This document shows, piece by piece, positions 43,342 to 46,056 of a DNA stretch of 64,000 nt. Position 1 is the stretch's first letter. Every line of letters begins with the position of its first letter. The position numbers were made by a program, and so were the translations under genes. This stretch comes from Candidatus Uhrbacteria bacterium (GTDB lineage: Bacteria > Patescibacteriota > Patescibacteriia > UBA9934), in NCBI GenBank assembly GCA_018664485.1, contig JABJOE010000007.1, positions 132,353 to 196,352 on the forward strand. Direction: 5' to 3'. Below the pieces are notes generated by a model, which was given only the letters and a program-made list of their open reading frames with translations, searched no databases and was not told the origin of the DNA.

Positions 43342-43370
43342 TTGACAAAAGTGCTATTTTGTGCTACTAT
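43342..43370 (+). promoter_or_regulatory. near-consensus sigma70 promoter upstream of the cassette array
   Basis: TTGACA-17 nt-TACTAT with a TG extension. Confidence 0.8.
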
Positions 43371-43552
43371 GTGAGGGTAGTTAAATTTCAAGTCTCTTTA
43401 CAATTTAGTGAATGTGAGCCCACGTTGATATTTTGGGTGATGCCTCTAGGCTCACTCTACCCCCAGCTATAGCCTATGAGTTATAGCTATTTTTATTTGG
43501 GAAAAAGATGAAAGGACAGGCCTTTTCATCTCGGTCTCAAACCGAGTGTTCA

Positions 43553-43673
43553 CACAGCTCTCGTTAGCACGAGAACACCCAATACATTCTCGGTAATCAC
43601 TGAGTGAGGGTGGCAAGCTGTACAAGATGTCCTGGCGCCTATGTCATGGACAGCTATCCCGACCATGGGATAG
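43553..43673 (+). ncRNA. structured repeat element, copy 1 (core; most divergent)
   Basis: CACAGC-TCTCG/CGAGA-CACCC...GGGTG-GCTGTA-TGTCC/GGACA-CTATCCC/GGGATAG, then AGGAG and ATG. Confidence 0.75.
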
Positions 43674-43684
43674 GAGAACATACA

Positions 43685-44047
43685 ATGGAAGAAAAGCTTG
43701 CAACCGATCAGAAGCGCCTCTCAAATGAGTTCCTGCTTGAATTCTTGAGTGCGACTAACAATGACGAGCGCTGCAAAGCGCTTATCAAGGAGTCATACCG
43801 ACTCTGGCCGAACAGGGATGGAAATCTCTACGATGGAGCCGACCACCCGTACTGTGTCTGGGAGAACAATGCCACAACTGCCGTTTCACGCGAGGAGAAT
43901 GCAAAGATCTGTCTCCAACACGCGAAATATGCAGACAGCAACTGCCCGTTCGCAGATGGCGGAGTCCTCTACGACTTTGTCACAACTAGTGTACTTCTGT
44001 GGGAGCCAGAAAAAGCCCGCATCAAAGAAGTTTACGAGTCACTGTAG
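43685..44047 (+). CDS. array cassette ORF 1, 120-aa orphan protein
   Basis: MEEKLATDQ...; AGGAG SD; starts 11 nt after repeat copy 1. Confidence 0.7.
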   Translation: MEEKLATDQKRLSNEFLLEFLSATNNDERCKALIKESYRLWPNRDGNLYDGADHPYCVWENNATTAVSREENAKICLQHAKYADSNCPFADGGVLYDFVTTSVLLWEPEKARIKEVYESL

Positions 44048-44058
44048 TTCTACTATCT

Positions 44059-44259
44059 CCCCAAGCAACTCGCTTGGGGCTCCGCAGAGCACATCACACA
44101 GTGGTGGATTCCGCAGAGCAGGAATACTTCCCGCTTCAATACAGCCCTCGACCAACGAGGACATCTAATACATTCCCGGAGACTACCGGGTGAAGATGGC
44201 AGTCTGTGTAATATATCCTGACATTTGTGTCATGGATAACTATCCCTTGGTACGGATAG
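44059..44259 (+). ncRNA. structured repeat element, copy 2
   Basis: CCCCAAGC/GCTTGGGG hairpin, GCTC...GAGC domain, core TACAGCCCTCGACCAACGAGG...CTATCC/GGATAG. Confidence 0.8.
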
Positions 44260-44269
44260 AAGTATACAT

Positions 44270-44656
44270 ATGAGCGCGATCCTCTTTCTCCTGCTTTCAA
44301 GTCTCCTAGCACACGCAGACGACATCGTCACTACAACAAGGGCCGAAACGGTTGTCGGTTATAGTGACGAGACTCTGATCTCCATAACTTCCGAAGTTGG
44401 AAGAGAGTGCTACGCCGCACGAAAGTGGCGACACTCAACTCTCGTATGCAGCGACATAGCAGTCTACACAATCCTTACGCACTCAGGTACATCATTGAAA
44501 AGTGTCAGTGTACCCATGTCGGCAACGACCTGGAATACTGCTCCGGTACCTGGTAGCCGAATCGAAATTAGGTGCGAAGTAACAGTAGATGAGTACAACA
44601 ACACAAACGGGTACCCGCTATTCATCCGGCGCCTTGATGAGTGCTGGGCGAACTAG
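44270..44656 (+). CDS. array cassette ORF 2, 128-aa secreted orphan protein
   Basis: Signal peptide MSAILFLLLSSLLAHA; 4 Cys. Confidence 0.7.
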   Translation: MSAILFLLLSSLLAHADDIVTTTRAETVVGYSDETLISITSEVGRECYAARKWRHSTLVCSDIAVYTILTHSGTSLKSVSVPMSATTWNTAPVPGSRIEIRCEVTVDEYNNTNGYPLFIRRLDECWAN

Positions 44657-44668
44657 TCAAACCCTTCT

Positions 44669-44864
44669 CCCCCTGGTACTAACCGGGGGCTCGATATAGA
44701 GCATGACAGAATCGTGCCTTGCGTCGAGCTAGATCATATCTGGCCTACATGCAGCCCTCGACCAACGAGGACTTCCAATAATCCGGATTTCCCGGTGAGG
44801 ATGACAAGCTGTACTAGATATCCTGCCCCTCGGGTCATGGATAGCTATCCCTTGGTACGGATAG
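44669..44864 (+). ncRNA. structured repeat element, copy 3
   Basis: CCCCTGGT/ACCGGGGG hairpin, GCTCGA...TCGAGC domain, core CAGCCCTCGACCAACGAGG...GGATAG. Confidence 0.8.
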
Positions 44865-44876
44865 AAGTAATAAGAG

Positions 44877-45404
44877 ATGCCAGAACATCAGAAAACTGAG
44901 GCTATGCTAAAAATGATGGCCAGCCGGACGGCAAAGGAGCTTCCGCCCCTTCCAGATGGATCCAAAATCATTCTGGAAGACGCACCTTCCGGACTCGTTC
45001 TAGCCAGAAACAGTCAGCGAGGAGGAATGTTTAGAAGGTGGAACGATGACAGAGGTCTTTTTCGCCGATTACTAGATCTGCTTCTTGGGTACAGTAGGAA
45101 AGGAGTACCCGTTCGACTGTTCGACCTGACCTGCTCAAACCAGTTCGACCTAGTTGAGTCAGAGCACGTCATAAAGGAAGCGTACATGGAGCTTCGGTGC
45201 ATCATCCAAACAAAGCCCAAACAGGTCTACCGAGAACTGTTTGGTAAAGCTGCACCTCCTCACTGGTCAAATAAGGAGGAGATGTGTATGCATAGACTAA
45301 ATGATGCATTCAAAATCAATCAACGGAACCGCACTGATCTCTCTGGGGTCTTCGCGATCCGGTATGCGTGCGAATGCGCCATAAAAGCAAGCTACCCACT
45401 CTAG
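44877..45404 (+). CDS. array cassette ORF 3, 175-aa orphan protein
   Basis: ATG 12 nt after repeat copy 3; stop 6 nt before copy 4. Confidence 0.7.
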   Translation: MPEHQKTEAMLKMMASRTAKELPPLPDGSKIILEDAPSGLVLARNSQRGGMFRRWNDDRGLFRRLLDLLLGYSRKGVPVRLFDLTCSNQFDLVESEHVIKEAYMELRCIIQTKPKQVYRELFGKAAPPHWSNKEEMCMHRLNDAFKINQRNRTDLSGVFAIRYACECAIKASYPL

Positions 45405-45410
45405 TACCTT

Positions 45411-45602
45411 CCCCAAGCTCTAAGCTTGGGGCTCCGCAGAGCACATCACATCGTGGTGGATTCCGCAGAGCAGGATAATATCCCGCTTAAATACAGCCCT
45501 CGACCAACGAGGACTTCCAATAATCCGGATTTCCCGGTGAGGATGACAAGCTGTACTAGATATCCTGCCTCTCGGGTCATGGATAGCTATCCGGAAGGAT
45601 AG
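45411..45602 (+). ncRNA. structured repeat element, copy 4
   Basis: 5' half nearly identical to copy 2; core nearly identical to copy 3. Confidence 0.8.
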
Positions 45603-45610
45603 TGGTAGTC

Positions 45611-45886
45611 ATGAAAATTCAAACAAAAACAGCTAAAGCGTTCCTTGAAGATAAAGTTGGCACAGCCACCATCCAGCTAATGTGGCTCCTGTTCACAGTC
45701 GAATGGGCATGGATGTTCTCTGGTGTAGCAGAGTACATGATCGCAGCACCAATCGGTGGAACGATCGTAACCTTTATTATCGCCGCGGCAAGTGAAAGCC
45801 GCGAGCAAGCAGAGGCCAGACAAGTGTCGCTAATGTTCCTCGCCTCTCCGCTTGCGTTCGCTATCTACGTCGTCCCTATGTTTTGA
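45611..45886 (+). CDS. array cassette ORF 4, 91-aa membrane protein (about 3 TM)
   Basis: ATG 8 nt after repeat copy 4; hydrophobic segments; CCCCGC/GCGGGG hairpin downstream. Confidence 0.65.
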   Translation: MKIQTKTAKAFLEDKVGTATIQLMWLLFTVEWAWMFSGVAEYMIAAPIGGTIVTFIIAAASESREQAEARQVSLMFLASPLAFAIYVVPMF

Positions 45887-46056
45887 TGAGCTTCACACCT
45901 CTTCAATTCCCTCCCCCGCGCCATCTGGTATAGCGGGGGTTTGAGTTTGGGCTTTATTTTTTACCAATAAACTGCGTGAGCTCAGCAAATTAAGGTTGAT
46001 TTCATTACCTATAGCTGTTTGCGTGAACTGCGTTGTTAGCGTACGATACGCCTATT

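Follow-up and report, generated by a model that had tools for sequence, protein, structure and literature searches.

A repeated intercistronic RNA element in a four-gene array of Candidatus Uhrbacteria: a probable RNase III processing spacer joined to an undescribed junction core

What is the function of a long structured element that is repeated ahead of each of four small, unrelated genes in a bacterial chromosome? This question is raised by a 64,000-nt stretch of a Candidatus Uhrbacteria genome (assembly GCA_018664485.1, contig JABJOE010000007.1, positions 132,353 to 196,352 of the forward strand), here called the window, in whose coordinates the positions below are given. The repeat is present in four copies, each comprising a core that lies directly ahead of an open reading frame (ORF), and copies 2–4 carry three further hairpins (H1, H2 and H3) ahead of the core. 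A first-pass annotation, made from the sequence alone, had proposed a multi-stem fold conserved by compensatory change and had suggested either a functional RNA or a single-stranded DNA (ssDNA) recombination substrate. The analysis presented here suggests that the unit is probably an RNase III processing spacer of a type that recurs in Patescibacteria, extended by an undescribed junction core.

Fold of the core repeat

The core measures 111–121 nt and its last stem, P6, ends 8–12 nt 5' of each ATG. The four copies are as follows:

43553..43673, plus strand, core copy 1
44140..44259, plus strand, core copy 2
44750..44864, plus strand, core copy 3
45492..45602, plus strand, core copy 4, identical to core 3 at 99 of 102 positions

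Stem P1 closes a three-way junction consisting of P2 and a P3/P4 arm with an AAUA/UGA internal loop, which is followed by P5 and P6. This fold is real and is conserved by compensatory change. The stems described in the first-pass annotation were found at their places in all four copies, with 137 of the 147 stem positions being Watson-Crick pairs, six G.T, one A.C and three other. In alignment A2, 97% of 134 cells were paired and 6 of 36 pairs had changed on both sides; the covariation score was reached in none of 500 shuffles, and slid controls paired at 34–40%. A random-column substitution null for two-sided changes gave p=0.0015 (R1/R2), <0.0001 (R1/R3) and 0.007 (R2/R3), and the same substitutions placed at random broke far more pairs than were observed. 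Four copies are present as annotated, but because cores 3 and 4 are nearly identical they represent three independent versions of the core. Two of the annotated stems also proved less regular than described: the closing stem lacks GCTGTA in copy 2, where it holds a C.T mismatch, and has a basal C.A mismatch in copy 1, and the CTTCC/GGATG stem holds a T.T mismatch. Copy 1 on its own folds into the proposed structure, with the minimum-energy folds of copies 3 and 4 being another fold without the junction. Folding z-scores for copies 1–4 were −3.1, −2.0, −1.6 and −1.9.

It had also been argued that many G-T pairs place the fold on the plus strand. The counts show this to be overstated: the cores have six G.T against one A.C, and the three H2 hairpins have eight G.T against nine A.C. 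In three of the four copies the proposed fold is more stable on the plus strand than its minus-strand mirror, but the free minimum energy is lower on the minus strand, also in three of the four. The strand asymmetry at the array locus is modest and the G-T strand argument weak.

The last hairpin was said to abut or overlap the ribosome-binding site. This holds for ORF1 and ORF4, which have a match to the Shine-Dalgarno (SD) sequence (−7.3 and −10.6 kcal/mol, respectively), but not for ORF2 and ORF3 (−3.3 kcal/mol). SD sequences are not enriched among the genes of the host (52 of 423; control, 57). The host 16S rRNA was seen to keep its anti-SD. It should also be noted that the leader and trailer of this 16S rRNA (end of contig C8, and contig C9) pair into a long duplex (−50.8 kcal/mol) around a small central loop, as is typical of a pre-rRNA processing stem. 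At the join of P5 and P6 there is a 12-bp palindrome, perfect in copies 3 and 4 (44848–44859 and 45581–45592) and imperfect in copies 1 and 2. The covariation in copy 1 supports P5 itself and not an exchange between P5 and P6. A single loop-loop complement was detected, between the loops of P2 and P6, in copies 2 and 3 only.

The H2 hairpin and its relatives

In copies 2–4 the 5' domain begins 6–13 nt after the upstream stop codon. Its hairpins, together with the hairpin occupying the corresponding place ahead of copy 1, are:

43496..43541, plus strand, 17-bp hairpin with a 3x3 loop, in the H2 position ahead of copy 1, of different sequence
44059..44079, plus strand, H1 of copy 2, GC-rich, without a U tract, 11 nt after the stop codon
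44079..44119, plus strand, H2 of copy 2, RNase III-like, predicted cuts 44085/44086 and 44114/44115
44118..44134, plus strand, H3 of copy 2, putative 5'-terminal hairpin of the downstream product
44670..44744, plus strand, 5' domain of copy 3 (H1 44670–44689, H2 44689–44729, H3 44728–44744), predicted H2 cuts 44695/44696 and 44724/44725
45411..45486, plus strand, 5' domain of copy 4 (H1 45411–45431, H2 45431–45471, H3 45470–45486), predicted H2 cuts 45437/45438 and 45466/45467

The 5' domain of copy 3 is approximately 60% identical to those of copies 2 and 4 and has the same shape. The earlier observation that this shape is kept with a different sequence was confirmed for its 5' hairpin, in which 14 of 38 stem letters differ and only 1–2 pairs are broken where the null expects 6–7 (p about 0.001). 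H1 lies close behind each stop codon and is similar to the closing hairpin of the array. Neither H1 nor H2 has a U tract, and no plus-strand promoter or terminator was called inside the repeats. H3 folds 1–3 nt from the new 5' end that the predicted 3' cut would leave.

The H1+H2 pair belongs to a wider spacer family of the host and of other genomes of the order. A second orphan array, on contig C1 of the host (71300–73300, minus strand; L194), has four H1+H2-type spacers, and a syntenic array in the same-genus genome G001 (L201) has three, with a different gene set. Each of these spacers consists of a hairpin and, immediately after it, a long hairpin whose alignment with H2 is gap-free except for one loop. 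When a profile of only these seven repeats of C1 and G001 was used to rank the 15 other paired hairpins of the host genome that score above 8 bits, H2 of copy 4 took first place, H2 of copy 2 second place and H2 of copy 3 tenth place. In the alignment of ten hairpins, 92% of cells were paired and 3 of 10 pairs had changed on both sides. A joint model gave matches in 15 of 149 other genomes of the order at E<=0.05, about half of them expected by chance, and in five at E<=0.001; in the class sample it matched 1 of 150 others at E<=0.005. Most of the matches among the 18 loci shown lie just 3' of another hairpin, between short ORFs. Further H2-type hairpins follow short ORFs at C7:134862–135291 and C3:134251 (both plus strand), the two copies on C7 having U-A in place of A-U at proximal box 2. 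Three identical H2-type hairpins were also seen in a small-gene array of another family (L229; G039:C1:173525–174852, minus strand).

An RNase III site is described as an 11-bp helix in which proximal box 2 is A-U or U-A, position 4 is not G-C and the distal box contains U.G; at box position 1 the Escherichia coli enzyme prefers G-C in the proximal and U-A in the distal box (PMC1540722). The Aquifex enzyme is described as depending on the proximal box alone (PMC3074117). The cut positions listed above were placed by the numbering of a 34-nt substrate with pair 9:30 and a cut after nt 6 (PMC1540722).

By these published determinants, H2 reads as an RNase III-type site in the register of the early sites of phage T7. 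For the helix criterion (at least 11 bp above the cut, about two turns), the three H2 copies have 19 positions, of which 15–16 are paired. The ten aligned hairpins had been chosen before the idea of RNase III arose, and proximal box 2 is A-U in all ten of them and A-U or U-A in all 22 further matches, a tally in which one row is anchored two pairs off. Proximal box 1 is G-C or G.U in 10/10 aligned hairpins. Proximal box 4 is never G-C or C-G (0/10 aligned, 0/22 further), being A.C in all three H2 copies, and distal box 2, six pairs above proximal box 2, is U.G in nine of the ten and in 19 of the 22, the other three of these 22 having C-G. The two middle pairs vary freely in the further matches. 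Six spacer hairpins of T7 (record V01146) fall in the same register as H2. A box descriptor, written with H2 already known, matched the array three times, each time on the plus strand and at H2, against a genome-wide density of 0.079 per kb. The host encodes a full-length RNase III on contig C7 (NCBIfam model TIGR02191, 220.6 bits against a cut-off of 166) with the signature motif and the glutamine of the double-stranded-RNA-binding domain, as well as RNase J and RNase Y. From these features we infer that the host RNase III cleaves H2.

Several observations weigh against this interpretation. The optimum of the E. coli enzyme is not found in H2, where box position 1 is G.U on the proximal side and C-G or G-C on the distal side; this preference is orthologue-specific, because the Aquifex enzyme ignores the distal box. 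The model that retrieved the 22 further matches already favours the letters tallied, and approximately seven chance matches are expected at E<=0.05 over 150 genomes. A stop codon lies nearby on the same strand in 16 of the 22 and on the opposite strand in 14, so that the strands are not separated. A profile built from T7 sites only ranks the three H2 hairpins 61, 430 and 431 of 555 passing hairpins, and the T7 sites are in turn missed by the family model. The hairpin ahead of copy 1 (43496..43541) has no match to the family model, and there is no family-type H2 at that place. Finally, P4 of the core, at 4–6 bp, is shorter than the 11-bp minimum, and RNase III leaves the core, including its invariant AAUA/UGA loop, unexplained.

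Proposed role and rival explanations

It is suggested that the repeat is an intercistronic module for mRNA processing and stabilisation, acting on the sense transcript of a four-gene operon, a reading to which we would give a little better than an even chance. Single-strand cuts are described as leaving stabilising 3' hairpins, and the T7 early message as having five such signals (PMC3867540). In the proposed mechanism the whole array would be transcribed from a single promoter and the host RNase III would cut the long hairpin H2 of this transcript. H1, joined by the upper part of H2 where only a single strand is cut, would shield the 3' end of the upstream message, and H3 would stand as a hairpin at the new 5' end and guard it against RNase J. 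The core, P5 and P6 included, would then serve as a structured 5' leader setting the stability and translation of the downstream gene, and one long message would be converted into separately protected single-gene messages. Of the functions listed in the first-pass annotation, a functional sense-strand RNA is supported and a processing site fits best, but for H2 and not for the core; neither a known ribozyme nor a riboswitch nor an ssDNA recombination site received support from any test.

The repeats would also offer homology for ordinary recombination, by which units could be shuffled. Copy 4 is a mosaic, its 5' domain agreeing with copy 2 at 70 of 82 positions and its core being that of copy 3. 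This mosaic and the differing gene sets of the sister arrays indicate turnover at the DNA level with no dedicated recombinase needed, ordinary recombination being sufficient because copies 3 and 4 share a 76-nt identity. A contig of sequencing run X3 that joins 44751 to 45494 over this identity is indistinguishable from a low-coverage assembly path, and excision is not supported by it.

Should the processing reading be right, these bacteria with small genomes would be punctuating fast-changing arrays of orphan genes with a T7-like RNase III signal and a portable structured leader, which would let them take up foreign genes and express them with no integrase involved. The six predicted cut positions make it testable with one enzyme and short transcripts.

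An unlikely alternative is that no cut is made and the hairpins either stabilise the message or act as partial terminators giving graded expression along the operon, their likeness to RNase III sites being incidental. The place of H1 at each stop codon and its resemblance to the closing hairpin would suit such a role, as would the failure of the T7-only profile to single H2 out; Rho was not found in the host genome, so the hairpins may do the insulating. However, plain stabilisers would not need an A-U and a U.G fixed at RNase III spacing in several genomes, and U tracts are absent from H1 and H2.

Most of the other alternatives concern the core, for which no relative was confirmed. In Rfam 15 no family at E<=10, ribozymes and riboswitches included, fits the core, and the core words of the hammerhead ribozyme were not found in the repeat units. 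Model R1 found the four known copies and no further core in its own genome, and none in 67 other genomes of the family. Its weak match in genome G291 (E 1.7e-4; 1 of 150 other genomes of the class) lacks the UGA, P5 and P6 and has a better alternative long stem by eye, and it was rejected as a relative. G291 also has, at L193:751–2499, a gene that by eye resembles a transposase of the repetitive extragenic palindrome (REP)-associated tyrosine type, followed by a long structured leader and a peptidase-like lipoprotein gene. Pattern scans of genome contigs gave 0 and 5 matches, none of the five credible; those of viral contigs gave 0, 32, 0, 0 and 0, none of the 32 passing the model; and that of metagenome contigs gave at least 118, with none credible among the matches listed. 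At 26 loci with H2-type matches model R1 sees no adjacent core. Apart from one weak match, at H2 of copy 4, neither of the models R1 and R2 recognises the repeats of the other. BLAST matches in genomes G009 and G015 were short chance matches. No published description of the core motif, or of such spacers in Patescibacteria, was found in the literature searched.

The internal loop offers some leads. A K-turn was rejected by eye, as the loop has no tandem G.A pattern, which we take to be the K-turn consensus. A UAA/GAN-type loop is a further lead, a term that was found in none of the papers listed for it. The C1-type spacers also contain an internal loop of a related kind, R-A-N-U / Y-R-A, and a descriptor of the AAU/UGA loop had six of its seven genome matches inside the arrays (control, 2); as it was written after both arrays had been seen, it is a lead only. 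From this likeness to the C1-type loop, P2 with P3/P4 may represent the two-hairpin module a second time in shortened form, a post hoc reading.

It is conceivable, if also unlikely, that the core belongs to an undescribed class of RNA (catalytic, ligand- or protein-binding, or ribosome-loading) that is coupled to the RNase III site and releases self-contained mRNAs. The ribosome-loading option would apply to a host without SD enrichment in its own genes. With a covarying fold and no family, the core merits inclusion in screens for ribozymes and riboswitches, whatever the role of H2.

Rather unlikely is a riboswitch or protein-binding element that controls translation ahead of each gene. Such a role draws on the distance of P6 to each ATG and its overlap with the SD match at ORF1 and ORF4, and on the related loop in the C1-type spacers. 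On the other hand, two of the four copies lack an SD, no alternative pairing is supported given that copy 1 covaries for P5 itself, the downstream genes are unrelated and no Rfam switch fits. A low probability is also given to an undescribed ribozyme, by which the core would cleave itself and so cut the polycistronic message. The hammerheads of prophage arrays flank single genes and cut in vitro (PMC3088659), and the core is a compact junction whose loop letters are invariant; against this stand the Rfam and hammerhead results above, the restriction of the only loop-loop complement to copies 2 and 3, and the redundancy of a second cutter beside an RNase III-like site.

An ssDNA recombination site of the integron attC or REP-hairpin type, capturing and moving cassettes, would suit the cassette-like layout, the mosaic copy 4, the differing gene content of the sister arrays and the different gene in the syntenic G001 gap (see below), but it is the least probable reading and a very improbable one, the attC boxes RYYYAAC and GTTRRRY having no match on either strand of the four units, the 76-nt identity sufficing for ordinary recombination, no Y1 transposase or reverse transcriptase having been found in the genome, and no integron integrase either, the sole tyrosine recombinase found being on another contig, best matched by Xer-type models and far under the cut-off of TIGR02249 (119 bits on a 174-aa piece, against 265).

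The array, its genes and comparable systems

The array lies on contig C6 of a genome of 981,522 bases that is rated 100% complete, between a transketolase gene on one side and a pseudouridine synthase gene on the other. Contigs from four seawater DNA runs (four studies) hold the locus with zero letter differences. The array consists of one promoter, a leader, four ORFs (120, 128, 175 and 91 aa) and a closing hairpin, and the processing reading takes it as one operon of four unrelated small genes. Apart from the repeats, its features are:

43342..43370, plus strand, sigma-70-type promoter, 10/12 consensus matches, consensus match only
43396..43429, plus strand, boxA-like motif, then a small hairpin
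43465..43497, plus strand, terminator-like hairpin with a T-rich tail, within the leader
43685..44047, plus strand, ORF1, 120 aa, no family
44270..44656, plus strand, ORF2, 128 aa, signal-peptide-like hydrophobic N-terminus, no family
44877..45404, plus strand, ORF3, 175 aa, no family
45611..45886, plus strand, ORF4, 91 aa (alternative GTG start at 45602), membrane-protein-like hydrophobic stretches
45913..45939, plus strand, closing GC-rich hairpin, then a T-rich stretch, probable transcript end, not called by the terminator scan

Other strong promoters of the host genome are similar to this one and form a family with it. The word at 43396..43429 presumably resembles boxA, by the consensus that we assume for it. 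The sequence of the adjoining small hairpin recurs in G001 (L025:533–570) behind the same kind of promoter, and this motif was found in 2 of 161 genomes of the order, the host and G001, at non-syntenic places. Among 24 boxA-like sites in the host genome, a consensus promoter precedes only those of the array leader and the 16S leader, and NusB is encoded. The boxA-like site with its hairpin is possibly an antitermination site ahead of the terminator-like hairpin of the leader. At G001 L025 a heavily folded 300-nt leader (590–850) and a hairpin-rich trailer (1340–1470) surround two orphan ORFs, with folding z-scores of −3.4 to −7.7.

The four ORFs gave zero Pfam matches and zero significant PHROG matches. 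Large protein searches with ORF1 and ORF3 returned only the proteins themselves or their own cluster. No credible relative of ORF3 was found among 1.84 billion representatives, its second match being a low-complexity repeat protein, and the Atlas matches of ORF2 and ORF3 were all under 0.9. The region of all four ORFs (43685–45886) shows atypical codon use (5th–13th percentile against chunks of host genes) and high GC3 (90th–94th percentile). In G001 the gap between transketolase and pseudouridine synthase (L183:2570–3370) holds a different gene, very GC-rich, of 243 aa and with its own strong promoter, whose product by eye looks like a FliA/WhiG sigma factor; the site therefore takes different inserts.

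Among known systems, the closest are the T7 early RNase III signals, followed by the hammerhead arrays of prophages, Promoter-early-Stem-Loop (PeSL) cassettes, attC arrays and tandem interspaced guide RNA (TIGR) arrays. To begin with the last named, TIGR arrays are described from parasitic bacteria as repeats that carry short conserved C/D-like words (PMC12045711), in which they resemble the present array. The array differs in having no 36-nt period, in units that are separated by ORFs at a spacing of 586–742 nt, and in four ORFs without a Pfam domain such as Nop. Integron attC arrays and clusters of attC sites lacking integrases (CALINs) have one promoter, a row of unrelated ORFs and one repeat per ORF. 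The array shares all three of these features, but it has no R boxes, no integron integrase was found, and its conserved wobble pair points to a sense RNA. PeSL cassettes of T4-type phages are repeated intergenic elements among orphan genes that drive recombinational shuffling (PMC2839356), and thus resemble the array, whose repeats differ by having neither an internal promoter nor a U-tailed terminator and by a far more complex fold.

Arrays punctuated by hammerheads are described in prophages (PMC3088659, PMC6765202). As in the present array, a structured RNA lies between variable small genes, and single-gene mRNAs have been proposed (PMC3088659); unlike them, the array has no ribozyme of an Rfam family, be it a hammerhead or another. 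The T7 early RNase III signals differ in that the present hairpins stand in a chromosomal array, with H2 flanked by H1, H3 and a 115-nt junction core, that cleavage is predicted, and that the T7-only profile scores the H2 of the array weakly. In both systems a long intercistronic hairpin lies within one transcript, between its genes, and carries an A-U at proximal box 2 (R1.1; PMC1540722), a Y.G six steps above it, and a loop or mismatches at the cut.

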